A DNA stretch of 63,510 bases, filler included, from Neolecta irregularis DAH-3 (Eukaryota): NCBI GenBank assembly GCA_001929475.1. It is 17 parts of 17 records of this genome, joined end to end, with 100 filler letters (N's around TTAATTAATTAA, not from the genome) between each part and the next. Parts side by side here need not be neighbours in the genome. Positions count along the whole stretch, not along the records: positions 6,668 to 10,746 come from LXFE01001877.1; 16 more parts are not named here. One strand, written 5' to 3'. The notes under the pieces were generated by a model. The model searched no databases. It was given only the letters and a program-made list of their open reading frames with translations, and was not told the origin of the DNA. Below, in pieces: positions 2,409 to 25,674 of this stretch; position 1 is the stretch's first letter, and every line of letters starts with the position of its first letter. The translations under genes and the position numbers were made by a program.

Positions 2409-3031
2409 GCACTCGACATTGTTGCGAGTGAAGAAGCGCCAAGTTCATTTGTACCCAGAGTCATCAGATTTGAGCAAACGACTGAATGTATACCAAATGA
2501 CCCAACGAGAAGTCTGCAGAAAATTGTACAGAAGCTTGTAGCAAGAACGAAAGAATCAGGGGACCAGAAAATCGGAGGAGTGTATGAGTTTCACATTTCC
2601 ATGAGCTGGTCACATCCTGTTTCCCGTCCCATTTCATAAATTGTTTCTGAATTTGATCTGATTATGCTGAAGCTTGCAGGATCGGTCATCAGGCCTTGAT
2701 TAAATAATCTTCAGGCCTCCCATAGTACGCCCCTGTTTCCACTTCCGGGTACTGTGCCGGCATTTCGTGTTCCGGCGGCTGCATCCGAGCTGAAACAACC
2801 TGCATCGGAATATCCCCGGCCCGTATACCATACGAGTAGTTTAGCCAGCGACCACTGGTTATATACCACTCGAAGCTTCATCCAAGTAGAATAACATTTC
2901 TACTCACAGTCGTAAAAACGCGGACCCCGAACGGCATTGTTACTCGGGGAAAATGTCCCGGAACATGAGCACGGGATCTATCAGCGGGTGTAATTAATGC
3001 CGGAATTATTGCTCCGCGTTGGGTGAATGTA

Positions 3032-3652
3032 GGCACACGCACCAATACGGAAGGAAGGCTTTATTAATATTCCGCAATTGTATAATATAGATAGCGACAT
3101 ACCTAGCCAAGTCGCCAATACTCGTTCCTAACCGACTGGACCAAATAGACCGTCCAAGTAGACCAGACCGGCAATAATTTTGGTCCAGACGGACCAGACC
3201 AAAGGGTCGATAGACTGAATAATTCATATACATAGTTAATAGTTAAGAAGAAATAGTAGAAGAGAAAAGGTACTTTGTAAGGGAATCTTGTAGAGGCGAG
3301 GCAAATTGAAATTGGTAGAAAATCTCAAAAGTGGTAGTGCGGTGGTAGTAGTAGTGGTAGTAGCGGCTCTATATTGCACCTCTTTGACTTTAGGTATAAG
3401 TTGACAACAGGATACATTTGTTAATACAAAATTCCCATTGTAACCAAGCAGCATATATCTGTTCGAAAAGATTTCTGAATGTATAGGATGGTCTAGACGG
3501 ACTAGACCGTCCATGGTCTATTTAGACGGACCAGACCAAGGAATCCAGCGGTCCAGACGGACCAGACAGGGGTCTTGGTCGGTCTGGTCCAGTCGGTTAG
3601 GAATTAGACTCCTGCGGAAGTCGCCAATACTAAATACAACGTCTTATTCGTA
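3032..3652 (+). repeat. Dispersed LTR-like repeat interrupted by the MITE; intact relative at 27931-28074 (-)
   Basis: 3032-3122 plus 3618-3652 align collinearly with the reverse complement of 27931-28074, with several small indels. Confidence 0.7.
3125..3603. mobile_element. hAT-type MITE (about 480 bp)
   Basis: Perfect 19-bp inverted termini TTCCTAACCGACTGGACCA / TGGTCCAGTCGGTTAGGAA; many subterminal GGACCAGAC/GTCCAGAC repeats; non-coding; another copy end at 6502. Confidence 0.8.
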
Positions 3653-3907
3653 TTCAATACTGAAACTCGANNNNNNNNNNCAGGTATAAGTTGACAACAG
3701 GATACATTTGTTAATACAAAATTCCCATTGTAACCAAGCAACATATATCTGTTCGAAAAGATTTCTGAATGTATAGGATGGTCTAGACGGACTAGACCGT
3801 CCATGGTNNNNNNNNNNNNNNNNNNNNNNNNNNNNNNNNNNNNNNNNNNNNTTAATTAATTAANNNNNNNNNNNNNNNNNNNNNNNNNNNNNNNNNNNNN
3901 NNNNNNN

Positions 3908-4200
3908 GGTGGAGGAGGCGGGCGAGGGGCCGTGGGAGCAGGGCGGCCGCGGGCAGCCGCAGCAGCGGGCGGTACAGCGCGACCGCGTGCAGGTAGCCGC
4001 CGACAAACATGGCGCGGTGGCGCGTGTAGTCCGCGACGAGCAGGCAGTGCAGCGCCGCCGCCGGCTGGTCGAGCAGCGCCGGCTGCCAGCAGTGCGCAAG
4101 CGCGTAGTTCTCCAGCACGCACGCGACGGCCGCCTGCGCGTGGAGGGCCGCGGCGACGTGCATGAGGCGGCACAGGCGGGAAAAGTCGACGTCTGCGGGT
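3908..4200 (-). CDS. GC-rich exon of a hypothetical protein (partial)
   Basis: Frame DVDFSRLCRLMHVAAALHAQ...LLVADYTRHRAMFVGGYLHAVALYRPLL has protein-like composition and GC-rich third positions; preceded by a CAG acceptor; truncated by the contig end. Confidence 0.45.
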
Positions 4201-4663
4201 GGTGAGTGCAGCCCGCGGACGCTACTCCGTGGATGTTGCTTAGTTTGTAGGCACTGCAATGAACAGGACCGAATATCACGACACTCTGTGAATTACTGTA
4301 GGGCGGCGTTTTCGAAGTGGACATTTTCTAGTCTGGAGTCATATTAATCACCATCTAAGTGGCGATGCTGTGCTTGGCGGCGTTCTGCAGGTTGTGGGCA
4401 GAACAAAACAGACAATCGCAATATGGAGCACGATGGGCATTGTCAATCTAGAACACAGAGATGTTGGTGTATTACTTGTGCGTGCTGGCGCGTTTGCAAC
4501 AGCTTCGAGCATTCACTATCTCTACCAGGAGATTCTATTGCTTTCATATCAAGGATAATATTTATTGCTACCTATTGTACACACATTCAACGCACATTCA
4601 TTTTTACAATTAACCAATATCAGATTGATGTTTCAAAATACTCATACAAAGATATATTTGCCT

Positions 4664-6667: not shown

Positions 6668-6905
6668 GGAGATTCCTGGGGTCAGGCAGGACTAGGGGGA
6701 ACGCACTGCAGATGGTAATGAGGCCGAGCCAGTAGAGGGGTCATGATTGATTGATGAATATCATTGAATGAGTGAATAATTAATGTGATGAATAGCGGCT
6801 GCTCGAGGCTGGACAGCAGCGCAAACACGAGCACGAACCGAGGTTGAGGACTTGCACATCGCTGCGGTCAGAGCGTTAAGGGTCAGGGTTTGGCGCACTG
6901 TAAAA
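6668..6905 (-). pseudogene. Degenerate, internally deleted duplicate of the TPT transporter gene
   Basis: 6668-6748 aligns to about 8885-8968 and 6794-6905 to about 9490-9615, including intron sequence, with indels. Confidence 0.8.
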
Positions 6906-7122
6906 ACGTGGGGATGGCACCGCGGGCCTGCGCGGGCAGCTCGTTGTGAATTTCCCATTGGAACTTGATCTTTGAGCTCTTAGGTATAGTATAGTATATA
7001 ACAGTTGGGTCCCAAGGTCACTAGCGTTGTAGGATTGAGGTCAACTCTGGATCGCCTCTGCCATGTCGATTGCCGTAATAGCGATAAAACATACATACAA
7101 AATAAACCATATCTAGGTCCCA

Positions 7123-8435
7123 CTACCCATATGTAATAATATCAAGCATACTGTTTTCAAAATGGTTTTCCACACTACTCTTCCATAATCGTATCTGGGA
7201 TCTAATGTCCTTCCTATATACTTTAAAGAGCACAAATTTCACCATGTCGTCAAGACACTTCAGGAAAATATTCCTTCCGCTATCGTCCACATCCTGGCTG
7301 ATGTTTAAATGACCCAGAAGGATACCTGTCGCCTGTAATATAACGGCCGACACTGGTTGGACAAGATGTTTAAATCCAAGNNNNNNNNNNTCAGAAGGAT
7401 ACCTGTCGCCTGTAATATAACGGCCGACACTGGTTGGACAAGATGTTTAAATCCAAGTGGTGTTGAATGAGCAAAGGGTTGTTGGGGGCCTAGCAGATTC
7501 ATAGCTTCTTGAAACATTTTCAAGGCAAATTCGGATTTAAGACTGGGATCCGTTGCATATATGAGAGGTTGATTTTGAGGTTCGGGACGGTACTCTATGA
7601 TAAAGTAGTTTCCCTTGCCAGAAACGATGAAAAGGTAAATGTCATTACCATGGATAAACAAAGACTTTTTTATTGGATCAAAAACGGTAGTGAAGGATGG
7701 AACGATGTTGTGGCTAAATATCTCGAGAAAAGCTAGAGCAATTATGTCTGAGAATTCCGAAGGGTGTGGCCATGATTTGAGGCCAAGGAGGATTTCTGCA
7801 GTGATTGAATGTCCAGGGATTTTGCGGCTAACTCTTACTTTATCGATCGAATCTCTAGAGATTTTGCGTCGTTTGGCCTTTCGCTCTCCTGTATCCTCAT
7901 CACCTGTATCCTCATCACGTGTATCCTCGATATCGACAACAGTTGCTGGTGTGCCATTCAGCGCAGAGTTCCTGCAGCCATCCAGAAAAGGGATCCAGAA
8001 TGTATAATGTAATGATGGTAAATATCCCTTTTCAACGTTATCGATCCACTCGTCACGGGATTCAATATTGCGAGAAAGCTCTTCAAGGTCGAATCTCCGT
8101 GGTACAGTGATACTAGATTTCAATTTCATACTACAAGGTGCTTACGTGTAGATTGCCATCATTAGATAATCAAATTGTTCATCAGAAAATTGCCTGTTTG
8201 GAGACATTGCACAATGTCTGGTACCGTCCGGAAAGATGATGGCGAGGAATGCATTACAGGAATACTTCATTGAGAAGCACACCTCTGCACACATCTCTAT
8301 CAGTTGTACAGGGGTAATGTCAAAGTCAACAGGAATAGCAGCTGGTTCACCAGATTGTACGACGACCTCTGTGAAATGATCGAGAAAAGAGGCAGCGCAG
8401 AGATTCGCTAGCACGATCGACCACAAGATCTTCAT
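7123..8435 (-). CDS. Orphan secreted protein: signal peptide, Cys-rich domain, NLS and conserved helical domain (candidate effector)
   Basis: ATG 8435 MKILWSIVLANLCAA; a 33-nt intron (8145-8113) joins the 8142 and 7305 ORFs in frame (IYT|ITVPRR); RKAKRRK; collapsing the overlap at the 10-N gap (7381) gives the stop at 7123; TATAAA about 50 bp upstream. Confidence 0.7.
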
Positions 8436-8608
8436 AGTACAGGGTATGGAGTAATATAAACTGTAGAGTTGGGGCATCAGCCTTTATAGAGGATCCGCAT
8501 CCAGCTTTTGTGAAAAAGCCACCATGATGAAACATTGAAGTAGATATCGCCGAATCAAGCACCATTTTTGAATATTGAATATAGTGAAGACATGATATAA
8601 ATACATAA

Positions 8609-9961
8609 CTAGACCCCGATTTGATCCCGGAGAGGAACGAGATGAATGGAATGACTAGATTGAGAATCGAGATGAACTGAATTATTAAGAGAATGAGATT
8701 GAGATTGAGAATCAAGTTGAGAATCAAGTTGAGAATCAAGTTGAGAATCGAGATGAAAGGAATGATCAAGAGCCGAATCGAGATCTGAATGTGAATCCTC
8801 TGAATCCGACTCATGCAGAGGGTGTGCATCCACAGGGAGCGGGCCAGCAGGCTTGGAGTCTGTGTAGCGCACGTAGTTGTAGTAGGAGATTCCTGGGGTC
8901 AGGCAGGGCTAGGAGGAGCGTACCGCCGATGGTAATAAAAAGGCCGAGCCAGTTTACGGGGGTCATGATGTCGCCAAAGATGAGGGTGGAGGCGACGATG
9001 GTGACGACCTCCTTGAAGATGCCGAGGACGGAGAGGGTGACGACGCTGGAGCGCATGATGAGGCTGGGGGTCAGGCAGGCAACAGGAGACGGATACGCAA
9101 ACTCGGCGCAGTGCAGGCAGAAGGCGAGCAGGATGGGGCACAGGATGTAGAGCACGCTGGCGAGGCCGTGGGCGGGCCAGAAGGGCGAGCGCAGCAGGGC
9201 CAGGGGGCCCTCGGCGGCGCAGGCGAGGACGAAGAGGGTTGCGAACATGGAGGGCGCGATGTGGAACAGCGAGGCGACGGGGTTCGCGGTGGCGGGCGTG
9301 TCGCGCAGCAGGATCTGGGCGAGGGCCCAGCGCAGGCCGCCGAGCACCGAGGCGGAGCCGGCGAGCAGGAAGCCGGCGAGCACAAAGTGCGTCTCGGAGG
9401 CGACCATCAGCGCGACGCCTGGATCAGCGACGGTGCGGCAAGGGCGGCACCGGCAGAGATGGCGGCGATGGCGGCGGCGACGGGCGCGCGCGGCTGCTCG
9501 AGGCGGAACAGCAGCGCAAACGCGAGCACGAACGCGAGGTTGGAGGACTTGCACATTGCTGCGTCAGAGCGTCAGCAGAGCGGCGAGCGTCAGCAGAGGG
9601 CCGCACTGTAGAACGACAGCGAGATCGTCTGCAGCGACGCGTTGGACAGCCCGATGTCGAGGCTGGTCGCGATGCCGCACGGCGCAACGTGGCACAGGTA
9701 CGCGCGCCGCGAGAGCACGGCGGCGCGCGGCGGGGCCAGCGCGGGCAGCGCAGCGAGCGCGAGCGCGGACAGCGCCAGCTGGCCCAGCATGTGCGAGGCC
9801 GTCGCAAACAGCGGGAACGCAAAGGCCAGCCCCTGCGGCGAGAACAGCCACTTGTTGTACAGCGACAGCGCGAGCGACGCCGCGTACCAGCACAGCGCCA
9901 GCAGCGCGGTCGCGGCCGCGGGCGGCACGGCGCAGGCGCAGGCGCGGGCATGGCGGGGCAT
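8609..9961 (-). CDS. Triose-phosphate/nucleotide-sugar transporter (TPT, SLC35C2-like), 4 introns
   Basis: WYAASLALSLYNKWLFS..FPLFAT; DIGLSNASLQTISLSFY|MCKSS; LGGLRWALAQILL; VTLSVLGIFKEVVTI; YYNY; repetitive LDSQ tail. Start codon uncertain (9961 or 10069). Confidence 0.9.
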
Positions 9962-10080
9962 TCTGCAAGTGCAAGGCACTCCCGCGCGCCAGAGCGCCTC
10001 CGAGGCACCTCCTCCGCCTGCCTCCACAATGGCCCGCCCAGGAGTCGGCGCCTTTGTCGCGCCGCCCATACCAGCCGCTG

Positions 10081-10248
10081 CGTCCCACCTCGTCCTGCGT
10101 CCCGCCGAGTCCCGCTGCGTCCTCTTGAGTCCCTCCTTCGTCCTGCGTCCCGCCTCGTCCTGCGTCCCTCCTCGTCCTGCGTCCCTCCTCGTCCTGCGTC
10201 CCTCCTCGTCCTGCGTCCCGCCTCGTCCTGCGTCCCGCCTCGTCCTCC
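10081..10248 (+). repeat. 17-bp minisatellite CGTCCTGCGTCCC(G/T)CCT in the TPT/TEA divergent region
   Basis: About 8 degenerate tandem units read directly. Confidence 0.85.
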
Positions 10249-10252
10249 TGAA

Positions 10253-10660
10253 ATGTCCTCCGCCTCAAACCCAGAAATGTCCTCCTCGTCCTCCTCCTCA
10301 AACCCCGAAAACGTCTGGCCCCCAAAAGTAGAGGCCGCCTTCCAGGAGGGCATGTCCCCTCCCGGCCCGTCTGACCCCAGCTATCCGCCAGATCCCCATG
10401 CTCGGCCGCAGAAAGACAATGTTCAAGGGAAAGTCCTGCGGCCGCAACGAGCTCATCGCAGACTTCATCCTCGACCGCACAGGCAAGCACCGCTCCCGCA
10501 AACAGGTCTCCAGCCACATACAGGTCCTCAAGGCCATCGCCCTCCAGCACGAAGACCACAACTGTATGCTGCTGTGCTTCTCCGCTAACCCAGTCCTCCG
10601 CCTGGTCCAGGAAGCACCCTCCTTCCGCAAACGCTCCCGCCAGCAGTCCCGCCCCCCCGC
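10253..10660 (+). CDS. TEA/ATTS-domain transcription factor (Tec1/AbaA family), 5' part
   Basis: [24 protein letters not shown]...[31 protein letters not shown]; requires a 31-nt GC-AG intron at 10350-10380. Confidence 0.93.
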
Positions 10661-11544
10661 NNNNNNNNNNGATTAGTCAGTTGAAGTAGATATCGCCGAA
10701 TCAAGCACCATTTTTGAATATTGAATATAGTGAAGACATGATATAANNNNNNNNNNNNNNNNNNNNNNNNNNNNNNNNNNNNNNNNNNNNTTAATTAATT
10801 AANNNNNNNNNNNNNNNNNNNNNNNNNNNNNNNNNNNNNNNNNNNNAGATGTGAAACTGACTGCGCGGACAATGCAATGAGGGCACCTCGTTCAGCGAGC
10901 GGCACATATTAGCACATAGCCCTGTTGGTGCCCGCATTGCAACCCGCCGCATTTCCCATGCTCAAACAAGGTTCCCCGTAAATTGTCTCAATAAACAATC
11001 CGATATCTCCAGAGCACTCATACCCTTGATCCACCAACGAGATCTATGGGCTGTGGGTGTTTTGTTTTCTTATATAGATTGTGCTCTCATGTCTTCTTTC
11101 CACTTCGGCGTGTCACCTAGTTAAGGTGATTAGGCTCAAGGTGAAAAAATTGATCAGTTATCTGGCCCTTGCTCTAATGTTGGGGTTTAAAGTGAGTGGC
11201 CTGCGTGATTATCACCTGACACAAACAGTTTCATTCAGTATTCGCTCAATACAGCAGTGGTCCAACTAATACAGGCTGTATCTGGGCTAAGAGGGCTAAG
11301 AGTGGCAAGACCTCTGTCGGAATGGCCCGATCAGCTGGATAGGTTTTATCTCCAACAGAATGGCACTAGTTGCTTTCCCTAAGTATCGCCTACGATTCAA
11401 CGTGCAACTAAATTCTCTATGAATACAACAACGCGCAGTGAATAACACTCACTTGCAATACAGCTTTGAAGCCGGAATTGTTAGGTCTTAGACCCTGTTT
11501 TAGGTTGGCTTTTACATGACCGATTTGTTTCATTATGTCAGTAT

Positions 11545-14931: not shown

Positions 14932-16803
14932 TCTGGTATTGGACTCATCATCCTTAGACTCTTCACCAGGTATTAGGCTGAGCTCCCTTATTGGTTGCAG
15001 CACAGCATAAGGATTTAGAACCATCCTTACAACAGGCCATTGATTGGCTCGGTTGGAGTCTTTACGAAATTAATGTGGTGCTTAGGTGCATCCTTCGGTG
15101 GTAGCTTGGGTGAATCAGTTACTTCAAATACCCTTGAAAAACACTTTCGGTAGCTTTTTTCCAATTCTGAGAATCATTGCTATAGGTTCTCTTCATCTTT
15201 ATCCATACTAGTAATACCTTCAGGTATTGCATTTTGAACATGTATGATTTGCTGTGACGGTGTTACTACCATGCTTTTGGACAACTCTGGACTAACTGAG
15301 ACAATGTTTGCTTTGCTGCCATTCATCATTGCAAGCCCTTCAAATGGGGACATCTTCACTTGAAACTTCTGCATAAATGGCTCTCCTAATATTGCTTCAT
15401 ATCTGGCAAGAGGGACAATGTGAAACCGTATCTTCTCTTTTGATACAAATTTTATCGAGGGAATCGAAACTTGTACTTCAATATATTCTTTTATCACTTC
15501 TGTATGTCCGTACAATACCTGTGACAATCGCAATAGTGGTTGCAATTTCTTTATCTCTATCTTATTTCTCAGCTTATCAGTTACAGTTGAGGCAATCAGG
15601 TTGCATCCTGCTCCAGTATCCAAAAATGCTTCTATAGCACATCCAGCTATATTCAACGTAACTGTAAGGCCTCTTCTCACTTTTTGAGATGGCTGGGTAG
15701 TAGTGGCAAATGAGCAGGCTAATTCGTCTTTATTGTCCTCATCTAAGCTAACTAACATAACATCTTTTCTTTTGTCCTTTTGTCCTGTATTTCCAGGGCT
15801 TTTATTCCTATTTTTTGGACATTCTCGTGCCAAATGTTCAGGGGATGTGCAAATATAACATTCATTATTTGCGTATCGTTTGGCTTTCTCTCGGTTGGAG
15901 GTTTGCGAATTACTTTTTACACCACTTTCTCGTCCTGGGCGTCGACTCAATGCTGCTTCTCCATTGAGCGCTGCATTGACTACTACCTCAAGCTTGGTCA
16001 TGTTCTCCAAATGTGTGCTTAAGGTGATCTCGATTTGCCATTTAAGTCCGTGTGTGAATTTCCGTACCATTAGTGGTTCAGTATATATTGATATATCTAG
16101 TTGCTGCCACAACTCCTCAAATTCAGCCTCATATTCTGAAACAGTTTTTGTGCCCTGTTTCAGTGCCTTGAATTTGGTTCTAATACCTGCAACATTCTGG
16201 TGGTGCAAATATTTTTGTGATAATTTTGTGAAAAAATCGTCCAGGTTAATAATGGTCTTTGCCTCTGTATCGAACCAAATGGTTGCATCATCAGTGAGTG
16301 TGCAGGCTACTTCGTAGTATAGTACTGTCTTTGATTCCTGCCCAACTTCTCAATGTAGTTGCACTATTCGTCGAGTCAGGCTCAACCATGCTTGGGCTAC
16401 TTTGATTGATTTCTCTTTTCCTGTAAACTTGGGTAGTGTCGGGAGGCTCCTATAAGGCCTTGCTTCAATGCTTTCTGCCTCTCTTTCTACTTTAGTAGAC
16501 ATTGCTGCATTACTAATACTGCATTGCTTTACTGCATTGCTTTTGCTGCACTAGTATTGGTGCTAATGAAAATATACTATATTTTCCTGTTTCTTCATAG
16601 AAACTTTTTATGATCAATTGTAAAAAAAATGTAAGTGATGGAGCTTGAGTACAATAAGATCAGGTTATATTTCCTTAATCTAAGCTTGTAGGTGTGTGAG
16701 CTTAAACATACCTTAATCTAAGCATGTAGGCGTGTGAGCTTAGACTAAGATATGTGCCCATAGTCTTTATATACATTTCTATCTAATGTCTTATTTCCCT
16801 TTC
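14932..16803 (-). mobile_element. Decayed Ty3/Gypsy retrotransposon, 5' part: LTR, gag, CCHC knuckle, aspartic protease
   Basis: LTR ends ...CTTACA at 16630; gag ATG 16502 with an in-frame TGA at 16350; LKQGTKTVSEYEAEF; CYICTSPEHLAREC; FLDTGA; ILGEPF; more stops at 15180 and 15174. Confidence 0.92.
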
Positions 16804-17239: not shown

Positions 17240-18704
17240 TCACGCCAGCGCCATCGGCACTATCCCAGACACATGGCACTCGGCCCCATACACCCGCATC
17301 TTCAGCTCCAGCTCCTCCCCCGCCGCCGCCATCATCTTGAGCGCCTCCTGGTAGTTCGGCCCCGCCCGCCGCACCCAGATCGAGACCTTGAACACATGCA
17401 GCGCCGACTGGAAGTCCTTCAGCGCCCGGATAATCCCGCGGAACGTCGTGACGCAGTTGGTGAAATTCGCAATCCCGCCGCCAATAAACAGCACCTTGCC
17501 CGCCTCGTCGGGCTGCCCCCGCGTCATCAGGTCCAGCACCGTCTTCGCATACTCGTACGTCTGCGTCTCCGTCGGCGCCCCAGAGTACTCGCCGTAGTTT
17601 GCAAGCTCGCCCGCAAACCCGCTGGAGGCGATCGCGTCCGCATACACCACAGACGCGCCCCCTCCAGCCACAAGCGTCCATATTCGTCCCTTGGGATTGA
17701 ACACTGTCAGCTTGAGTGACGCCCCCGTCTTGGCATCCAAATCTTGGATGTACTTTTCCTCCTTTGACAATCGCCGTCCAAACGGCGCCGGAAACTCCAT
17801 CGGCGGCCCGTGATCCGCAGACACCCCACTTTCCTCTATCTCCGTAATCCCCAACACTTGCGGCGACCGTGCAATCGCCCACTTGGATCCGCACTCAAAC
17901 TCTGCCGTTTGGTCCAGCTTTGCCGCGAGATCCAGGTAGTGCACTTGCGCCCCCGTCTCCATAGGAAGCACCACAAGCGGGTTGATTTCAAGGTACGTGA
18001 ATTGACATTCAACATACACCGCATATAGCCGAACAATAAAGTCTGTAAGCACCGCATGAGTCTTTGCAGGCACCTGCGCCAGTAATGTCCTCTGAATCGT
18101 CTCCCGAGAAGGAAACTGCCCCAAATCAACCGGCACAAGCATTTTCTCTGCTTTCGAATCGACATCCCCAACATCAACGCCCCCCTCATGCGTAAACAAG
18201 ACTACATCTCCTTCTCGAATACTGAAAATGTTGATATAATATTCCGTGTCCTGCGGATGCGCAAGAAACGGCTCAACGAGAAAAACAGTGAGATATCCTT
18301 GAACGTGTTCAACTTGTTGCAATTTGCCAGCTCGCGCAGCAATCCATTCTTTAACCTTCTCCCACGTCGCATTCAATTTCAAAAGACCGCTCTTGCCACG
18401 TCGTTTAATCAGCATATCAGGCTTTGCAACAAACTTTTGCCCATCTTCAAGTAAAAACGGATACTTTTTTTCAGCAGACACCAACACATGCTCAACGTGA
18501 GCTGCATAGTCTCCTTCAAAAGTTTCTGGATCTTCAAAGAATAGTTGTGCAAGACGGTGAATCTGCGGCACGATATCTGTTTTCGTTTCAATTAGCGGGG
18601 TCGACCGGTGCAGAAAGTAAGCAAGGATAGCTTTCCCATCGGCTTCGCGGATAGATTTAGCAGACTGGCCCGTTAGCTTTGAAAATAGATAAATAACGCA
18701 CCAT
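17240..18704 (-). CDS. ACL2: ATP-citrate lyase, ATP-grasp subunit
   Basis: ATG-only first exon, intron 18701-18665, then SAKSIREADGK; KPDMLIKRRGKSGL; TLVAGGGASVVYADA; ANYGEYSGAP; GGGIANFT. Confidence 0.96.
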
Positions 18705-18918
18705 ATCAGATGAATTACTCGTCCGGTAAAACGTGTCAGTTATAAAGGTTTCTGCACAATGGTTGGGGCAAACGACGCTAATTTTGATCGAGCGAGACTC
18801 CGAAAGCGATGATTGGTTCCGTTCGGCGATTGGGGCACTTGCGTATTTCCAGCATTAACCCCCTCTTTAAATAAAAATCCCGCTCCTCAAAACTCATCTT
18901 GTTTCCAGACGTACAACC

Positions 18919-24460: not shown

Positions 24461-25674
24461 GAATTCTGATTTTCTAGAGAGTGTATCTGCCACGAGGTTT
24501 GCAGCTCCTGGGATGTACTCAACTTCAAAGGCCGAGAATTCTGCCATGAACTCTAGTATTCGAATCTGCTTTGGATTTAGTTTCGGTTATTTCATGATAT
24601 ACTGAAGTGCTTTGTGATTGGTCCGGATTATAAAACTGGCTCCATGTAACAATGGCCTAAATTTCTCTAGTGCTTTTCTTATCGCGAACAACTCCTTGTT
24701 ATGAGTTATCCAGTTCCTTTGATGCACGTCGAGTTTCTTCAACATGAACATGACCGGATATGCTAAATTGTCTGCCCCCACTTGCGACAGTACTGCTCCG
24801 ATGCCAATTGATGATGCGTCGCAGGTAACTACCGAAGGTTTGGATGGGTCATGTCATACTAGAACTGGAGGAGAGATTAATGCCTGTTTTAGTTTCTGGA
24901 ATGCAGTCCTTTGCTCTGCATCCTATTTCCATGTTTGATCTTTTCGAGTAAGTTCTGATAGGGGTGCTGAGATTGCTGTGAAGTTCGGAATGAAGCATTG
25001 ATAAACCCCTAGCATTCCCAAGAATGCTTGAGTTTCTTTGAGGTTTGTTGGCTCTTTCCATTCCGAAATCTCTGCAATCTTGGCATCTTGAGCTTCAATG
25101 CCCTTCTGTGATATCTTGAATCCCACCCACTCGATAACTTTCTTCTCGAATTCATATTTCTTCAATTTCGCGAAGAGTTTCTTCTCACGAAGTTGTTCAA
25201 GTATTGCCCGGACATCCTTAATGTGCTGACTCTGTGATTTGGAGAATATCAGTACATAATCCATGTAGACATTACAGCATCGTTCTAACCCAACCAATGC
25301 CCTATTCATCATCTGCATAAACATGGCTGGCACATTTGCCAAGCCAAATGGTAACACTTTAAATTCAAAGTGTCCTATCTTCGTCTTAAATGCTGAGGGG
25401 TATGGTGTCCAGGTGTAGTAGTTGCTGAAAATATCCCTATGCCAGGTTGAGTTTAGAGAACCAACCTGCATTACCGATCTGGTCCAACAGTTTGTCTATC
25501 CTTGGTAGAGCCATGTTATTTTTAAGAGTATTGCTATTAATATCACGATAGTCAATACACATGTGTAATTCGCCTGATTTCTTCTTGACGAATAGGCAAA
25601 CGGCACCATAAGGAGATGTACTATGCTGGATAAATCCCTTTTTTAGCAGACTTTGTACCTCTTCTCTCATTGCG
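24461..25674 (-). mobile_element. Decayed Ty3/Gypsy pol fragment (reverse transcriptase, RNase H)
   Basis: FVKKKSGELHMCIDYR; LPFGLANVPAMF; YMDY in place of YxDD; TCDASSIGIGAVL; KELFAI; frameshift near 25440 and several stops. Confidence 0.93.

Follow-up and report, generated by a model that had tools for sequence, protein, structure and literature searches.

A minus-strand ATG at position 8435 on one scaffold of the Neolecta irregularis assembly opens a 96-codon ORF (protein start MKILWSIVLANLCAAS, fuller read MKILWSIVLANLCAASFLDHF) that shares its frame with a second, long minus-strand ORF, the two being separated by a lone TAA (8144-8142). This candidate gene lies between a transporter gene and a degenerate partial copy of that gene; positions here and in Table 1 are numbered along the whole stretch of DNA that was analysed (63.5 kb, hereafter the window). 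The N. irregularis genome is reported to comprise 14.5 Mb with an N50 of 16 kb, a GC content of 44% and 5,546 genes, and fruiting bodies are named as the source of both the sequenced DNA and the sequenced RNA (PMC5309816). The window consists of small scaffolds strung together by 16 linkers (N44-TTAATTAATTAA-N44, spanning 2309-62300) and contains five N10 gaps (at 3671, 7381, 10661, 26139, and 26586). Since the scaffolds are merely linker-joined, apparent neighbours across linkers are not physically linked, and the physical linkage of the finding reported here is restricted to the scaffold at 6668-10746.

The scaffold and its neighbouring genes

Exact 66-nt duplicates flank both N10 gaps of this scaffold (7315-7380 is identical to 7392-7457, and 8535-8600 to 10681-10746); these duplicates are contig overlaps that were left unmerged by the assembler. 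The first of them interrupts the candidate gene, where 77 nt (7314-7390) are skipped by one contig of the DNA-type run X1 and by one contig of a second run, X2. Excision of this 77-nt artefact and of a 33-nt unit that holds the TAA yields a 1203-nt CDS of 400 codons plus a TAG (7125-7123). The original prediction that the two ORFs form one protein of about 400 aa would therefore hold with the artefact and the 33-nt unit excised, whereas in the literal sequence the frame is broken at the N10 gap. As a practical lesson, unmerged 66-nt overlaps and small scaffolds make it advisable to check frames and "neighbourhoods" against reads before they are interpreted.

None of the runs listed is recorded as RNA; X2 is classed here as RNA-type solely on account of six joints at which it lacks GT-AG or GC-AG units that are retained in X1 (Table 1). 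The CDS of the upstream neighbour, a TPT-family transporter gene, ends at about 8609 (in VPLRDQIGV and a stop), and its GC content is about 71% until the last intron (8892-8922) and about 40% thereafter, with one RNA-type contig covering both parts. A tandem array of nine 17-nt units (TCGTCCTGCGTCCC[GT]CC) occupies 10056-10256, in the 5' part of the transporter RNA-contig region, with a period that is not a multiple of three, and an ORF with a TEA/ATTS domain (PF01285) lies beyond the TPT gene. Elsewhere in the window, a 499-codon minus-strand ORF (17240-18739), which by its appearance may be an ATP-citrate lyase, passes from about 44% into about 63% GC, and two minus-strand ORFs on small scaffolds (15180-16349 and 24923-25495) are, by their appearance, presumably retrotransposon gag/protease and reverse transcriptase fragments.

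On the downstream side, the TPT duplicate is spliced in an X2 contig (37-nt intron, 6862-6898) that continues into a diverged copy of 8882-8410. The presence of the TPT gene and of its degenerate copy in one scaffold bears out the proposal that the candidate occupies a rearranged site between a housekeeping gene and its broken duplicate, and the two TPT-like blocks downstream point to an origin of the locus by local segmental duplication, which would also have carried part of the TPT gene. The start of the duplicate fragment (6668) is 2217 nt from its homologue (8885), and the final 76-nt piece of the scaffold (10671-10746) carries an exact 66-nt repeat of the transporter 3' region (8535-8600), 2146 nt apart; these spacings reflect either tandem repetition of a unit of about 2.2 kb or mis-scaffolding across a repeat.

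Table 1. Coordinates of the candidate gene, its parts, its neighbours, a paralogue, and the introns supported by RNA-type contigs
Feature	Position	Strand	Remarks
Start codon and signal-peptide-like N-terminus	8388..8435	-	ATG 8435; read by eye
Exon 1 (290 nt, 96 codons + 2 nt)	8146..8435	-	Open in phase with exon 2; codon score 0.109
Four-Cys module C48-x3-C52-x6-C59-x15-C75	8211..8294	-	From exon 1 translation
Putative GT-AG intron GTAAGC...CTAG holding TAA (8144-8142), or retained stop	8113..8145	-	33 nt
Exon 2, first part (240 codons, P0004)	7392..8112	-	X2 contigs cover 7391-7677 and 7866-8086 exactly
Acidic run (DIEDTRDEDTGDEDTGE) then basic cluster RKAKRRK, NLS-like or dibasic processing site	7863..7934	-	From exon 2 translation
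Conserved family core (SEF..LAFL..F, DPIKKxLF, GNYxI, MFQEAM)	7473..7760	-	34% identity to P0007 over 109 aa, E 1e-15
Assembly artefact	7315..7391	.	N10 7381-7390, odd base 7391, 66-nt copy (7315-7380) of 7392-7457
Last 63 codons and TAG stop (7125-7123), end ...SMLDIITYG	7123..7314	-	C-terminal motif common to P0007
Upstream neighbour, TPT-family transporter gene (PF03151)	8609..10167	-	Four RNA-supported tiny introns
Downstream neighbour, degenerate partial TPT duplicate	6668..6980	-	Two blocks, 84-92% identity, about 520 nt missing between
Distant paralogue P0003	26647..27567	-	Other scaffold; N-terminus cut by scaffold end; C-terminal KRK-x12-KKRK
X2-supported intron	9559-9606		48 nt
X2-supported intron	9418-9449		32 nt
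X2-supported intron	9064-9096		33 nt
X2-supported intron	8892-8922		31 nt
X2-supported intron, TPT duplicate	6862-6898		37 nt
X2-supported GC-AG intron, TEA-domain gene, GCATGT...CTGACCCCAG	10350-10380	+	31 nt

Coding status and the 33-nt unit

With an expected stop frequency of 5.5% of codons, taken from the local base composition, the chance that the in-phase frame upstream of exon 2 stays open is P = 0.0018 over 113 codons and P = 0.0046 over 96 codons. By a codon-usage log-odds measure for which 17 long ORFs of the window served as training set, exon 1 scored +0.109 bit per codon in its own frame, as against -0.35 and -0.31 in its two alternative frames, and exon 2 (translation ITVPRRFDLEE...DIEDTRDEDTGDEDTGERKAKRRK) scored 0.199, as compared to 0.106-0.215 for six training genes of the window. 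Of 55 control stretches without stops (off-frame or antisense), 5 attain the exon 1 value. From the open frame (P 0.002-0.005) together with the codon score, we conclude that exon 1 codes now, or did so until recently, in one continuous frame with exon 2; apart from the TAA, the 1.2-kb frame is free of defects.

Starting at 10167, one X2 contig of 1861 nt takes in the transporter gene with its four introns removed, an AT-rich tail and exon 1 as far as 8151; as the transporter CDS ends at about 8609, the exon 1 sequence, while present in RNA, is possibly there just as the 3' region of the transporter gene, and a single transcript does not follow from a contig that spans two genes. Exact X2 matches extend over 7123-7313 plus 7391-7677 (depth 44.6) and over 7866-8086 (depth 18.2), and no X2 contig was found over 8087-8150. 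The contig with 7866-8086 extends upstream into 377 nt unlike the scaffold, so that the copy expressed over this interval may be a paralogue. Compared with both the assembly and X1, X2 has a 12-nt deletion at 8705, where the transporter has its DSQL-repeat tail, and an 18-nt insertion near 7083-7096; because of these indels, the source of X2 may be another allele, genotype or individual.

The 33-nt unit itself has the form of a minimal GT-AG intron. The six X2-supported introns of this scaffold measure 31-48 nt, a range in which 33 nt is unremarkable. Each of them has CTGAC or CTGAT at 6-8 nt from its 3' end; the candidate is without a branch motif of the form [CT]T[AG]A[CT], its nearest approximation being TTGAA, 7 nt before the 3' end. 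This absence appears to weigh against an intron, yet it is not decisive, since in a scan of AT-rich sequence for GT-AG units that link two ORFs of at least 90 codons (42 unverified candidates in 19 clusters) a motif of this form, 5-20 nt from the end, was present in only 8 of the remaining 18 clusters. Among the X2 joints listed, none joins 8146 to 8112, though contigs of this kind cannot show absence. The earlier proposal of a 33-nt GT-AG intron is therefore upheld as to the in-frame ORFs and the GTAAGC...CTAG unit of exactly 33 nt, but RNA does not confirm the splice. On balance, the 33-nt unit is probably an intron whose removal would take out the in-frame TAA; it is doubtful that the TAA is a true stop, and very unlikely that exon 1 and exon 2 are separate units.

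The doubt about the TAA can be phrased as a reading of the whole gene, namely that this is a disabled copy in which a true stop interrupts a once-continuous frame of about 411 codons, leaving a pseudogene or a 97-aa product, with other paralogues working. Several observations are consistent with such a history, including the lack of YTRAY in the 33 nt, the duplicated and partly degenerate surroundings, and the upstream continuation of the X2 contig over 7866-8086 into sequence that differs from this copy. In addition, alignment to an environmental relative (P0007, described below), which has a single continuous ORF across the site of the 33-nt unit, gives practically equal scores whether the 33 nt are retained (223.5) or excised (224), and the kept segment would read MKLKSS, near EKLKPP of P0007. 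Against disablement, the stop falls exactly within GTAAG, an in-frame CTAG follows 33 nt on, and the resulting length is typical of local introns; moreover, the 1.2-kb frame has coding-like codon usage throughout and no further defect. We thus regard a disabled copy as a minority possibility and continue with the spliced, two-exon gene.

The predicted protein and its family

The predicted protein begins with MK followed by 13 uncharged hydrophobic residues, with small residues at -3/-1 (CAA|S or AAS|F). By eye, both the (-3,-1) rule and an n/h/c pattern fit, in agreement with the hydrophobic N-terminus that had been predicted. As read from the N-terminus alone, the protein may therefore enter the secretory pathway by way of a cleavable, signal peptide-like start. 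Downstream of it in exon 1, the four cysteines described in the original prediction are present, but the supposed resemblance to PAN/apple was not detected by Pfam, with which exon 1 matched 0 families at E <= 10, PAN/apple included. The relative P0007 retains the middle two cysteines and is without both outer ones in a collinear alignment; this paired loss suggests that the module probably forms two disulfides, C48-C75 and C52-C59. In exon 2, the acidic patch and the RKAKRRK cluster were located, as predicted, at 7934-7863. In P0007 the RKAKRRK stretch is gapped and the aligned position is without a similar basic cluster, so that the patch sits in a non-conserved linker; if the protein is secreted, a role of RKAKRRK as an NLS and one as a dibasic processing site of Kex2 type would be equally conceivable.

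Relatives of the protein are few. An HMMER pass of exon 2 against 1.84 billion representative proteins gave three matches (P0005, P0006, and P0007). Two of these, the bacterial proteins P0005 and P0006 (E of about 4e-17), are He_PIG Ig-repeat proteins matched 14- to 16-fold and are not relatives, since it is always one stretch of 23-61 residues that is aligned, at about 30% identity, to repeat after repeat, and the low E-values are a sum over repeats. By contrast, P0007, an unnamed 367-aa protein from one 1605-nt JGI/IMG metagenome contig, is a true relative (34% identity over 109 aa of exon 2, E 1e-15) and has in common with exon 2 the start (RF..E..R...S.D.W..N.E..Y) and the C-terminal SMxDIIT. 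Local alignment of the whole frame to P0007 runs from residue 49 (AEVCFSMKYSCNAF vs ADRCLKYNYFCYSF) to residue 398 with a score of 224, of which exon 1 contributes 16.5, a share attained by 51 of 2000 shuffles; exon 1 alone shows no significant similarity to the N-terminus of P0007 (its score is equalled or exceeded in 157 of 2000 shuffles), and BLAST finds nothing with it. Together with the open-frame probability, this collinear gain lends statistical support to the one-frame, modular reading of the original prediction. The ORF of P0007 reaches 74 residues upstream of the RF motif; its 5' end is cut off, such that a signal peptide is not visible and conservation of one is not checkable. P0007 also differs from the predicted protein in having neither the acidic/basic linker nor the two outer cysteines.

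Within the window, profile search of the six-frame ORFs retrieved no member other than this gene and P0003, a distant paralogue, and tblastn with exon 1 found no second copy. The pairwise E-values of P0003 are weak (0.03-0.09), and its strong match to the family profile arises by construction, P0003 being a row of that profile; the four-row family alignment is nevertheless collinear over the part of P0003 that is retained. P0003 ends in GGKRKLDDSDTFSDLEPKKRKHM, which resembles a bipartite NLS. Word-based searches retrieved nothing with exon 2 alone and just P0007 with two family profiles, the gene is absent from the proteins of a 5.8-billion collection, and metagenome locus scans yielded no relative. 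Among the protein sets searched, the family has so far been seen only in N. irregularis and in one metagenome relative, and the claim of a lineage-specific family is sustained by this one relative among 1.84 billion representatives and by the lack of a Pfam or PDB match.

Copy number was read from the DNA run. Summed X1 depth over 7606-7873, which overlaps the upstream two-thirds of the core, is 2570-4305, as compared to depths of 382-500 for six of the seven window-identical X1 contigs among the matches listed (the seventh, over the GC-rich end, has a depth of 123). Position 7716 is covered by seven variant contigs, and several copy variants in this run have internal deletions; among the paralogue differences listed, four of nine are synonymous and five are residue-changing. 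The extra depth indicates that several paralogues exist and that the gene belongs to a multi-copy family. A multi-copy signal by itself does not make a gene a transposon, and no sign of a transposon protein was seen here, with no Pfam match to a transposase, reverse transcriptase or integrase and 0 inverted repeats of at least 25 nt in scaffold 6668-10746. Homology to a housekeeping or transposon protein, which had been named as grounds for abandoning the prediction, was not found in Pfam or the PDB.

Fold tests gave no assignment. Against PDB sequences there was no match for P0007 (E <= 1) or for the family profile (E <= 10), and the AlphaFold pLDDT values of 34.5 for P0007 (3 rows) and 38.2 for P0003 (4 rows) make both models unusable. 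In the Atlas, P0007 had no usable match, and all matches of exon 2 scored below 0.9, where a score is a lead only. Pfam search of exon 2 returned nothing but a sub-threshold match to SMI1_KNR4.

Readings of the locus and comparison with known systems

Taken together, these data are best explained, in our view, by a real protein-coding gene that represents one copy of a young, multi-copy family seen in N. irregularis and in one environmental relative, a tentative reading to which we assign a probability of roughly 0.45. Under this reading, a 33-nt intron would excise the in-frame TAA and two exons would give a 400-aa protein, which would consist of a signal-peptide-like start, a four-Cys module, helices, a disordered acidic/basic linker, a conserved alpha/beta core, and a helical tail; this copy would have been produced by local segmental duplication together with part of the TPT gene. 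The splicing, secretion, disulfides and function of the protein are features that we infer.

A different view of the same family is that it is intracellular and probably nuclear, with a hydrophobic start that does not work as a signal peptide, with exon 1 unused or ATG 8129 used instead, and with NLSs that act in the fungal nucleus. Such a family would account for basic clusters in two paralogues at different places (RKAKRRK in the middle of this protein, KRK-x12-KKRK at the C-terminus of P0003, the latter more suggestive of a nuclear signal than of secretion) and for the acidic run next to the basic cluster; in addition, the in-frame ATG at 8129 opens MKLKSSITVPRRF, and the X2 contig that includes the TPT gene extends over exon 1 as far as 8151. 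However, an unused exon 1 is difficult to reconcile with an in-phase upstream frame that stays open at P 0.002-0.005, with a collinear extension into exon 1 that is matched by just 51 of 2000 shuffles, and with a single ORF in P0007 that has 74 residues ahead of the RF motif, and the lack of a matching basic cluster at the aligned position of P0007 also speaks against this view. An intracellular family is thus unlikely, and a two-exon gene with a signal-peptide-like start is preferred.

That the protein is an intact secreted effector which reaches the nuclei of host cells after delivery into them is, for all the appeal of a signal-peptide-like start, a Cys module and a strong basic cluster in a lineage-specific, multi-copy family, highly improbable, given that the basic cluster lies in a non-conserved linker, that PAN/apple was undetected, that the splice junction is unseen in the RNA contigs (which cannot show absence), and that the main text of PMC5309816 uses "effector" for endomembrane factors alone. 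The label "effector" is a hypothesis that draws on just the signal-peptide-like start and the basic patch, and we likewise give little credence to the broader proposal of a secreted effector family with a signal peptide, a disulfide module, a processed or nucleus-targeted body, and expansion by tandem duplication. If such an effector family were real, it would offer a first molecular handle on host manipulation by a fungus of unsettled lifestyle.

If the preferred gene model of a spliced copy of a young family holds, the locus represents a fast-evolving, multi-copy family, unannotated and without a known fold, in a lineage that diverged early among the ascomycetes. Fungal genomes commonly contain families of this type, and secreted or conflict-related proteins often go unnoticed in them. 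The gene merits a re-annotation line and a place in a secretome screen. In the Neolecta literature (on introns, the complex multicellularity genome, and rootlets), the titles and the opening parts of abstracts among the matches listed mention no such family.

Among known systems, the likeness to PAN/apple domains consists of four cysteines and an aromatic residue after the third, and exon 1 has no Pfam match to them. For SMI1/KNR4 (SUKH-1, PF09346), residues 159-190 of exon 2 (the IYLFIVSGKGNYFIIEY hairpin) match profile positions 78-110, with a sub-threshold score (E 0.091, 13.8 bits vs a cut-off of 25.4) and with no match in P0007 or P0003. Peptidase C48 (Ulp1-like, PF02902) is carried by three of the six Atlas clusters among the matches listed for exon 2, at scores of 0.85-0.87, and a strand-turn-strand pattern in exon 2 presumably recalls its His-Asp region; by contrast, exon 2 is without a Pfam match to this family, the family alignment has no conserved His or Cys column, and none of the catalytic His, Asp or Cys corresponds to an invariant column of the four-row alignment. 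Secreted fungal effectors that carry an NLS and act in host nuclei form a class that is defined by function and not by sequence, and comparison with it was by class description alone. The candidate, known from its sequence alone, differs from this class in that its NLS-like patch is not conserved, and it resembles the class in its hydrophobic N-terminus, its basic cluster, and its lineage-specific expansion.
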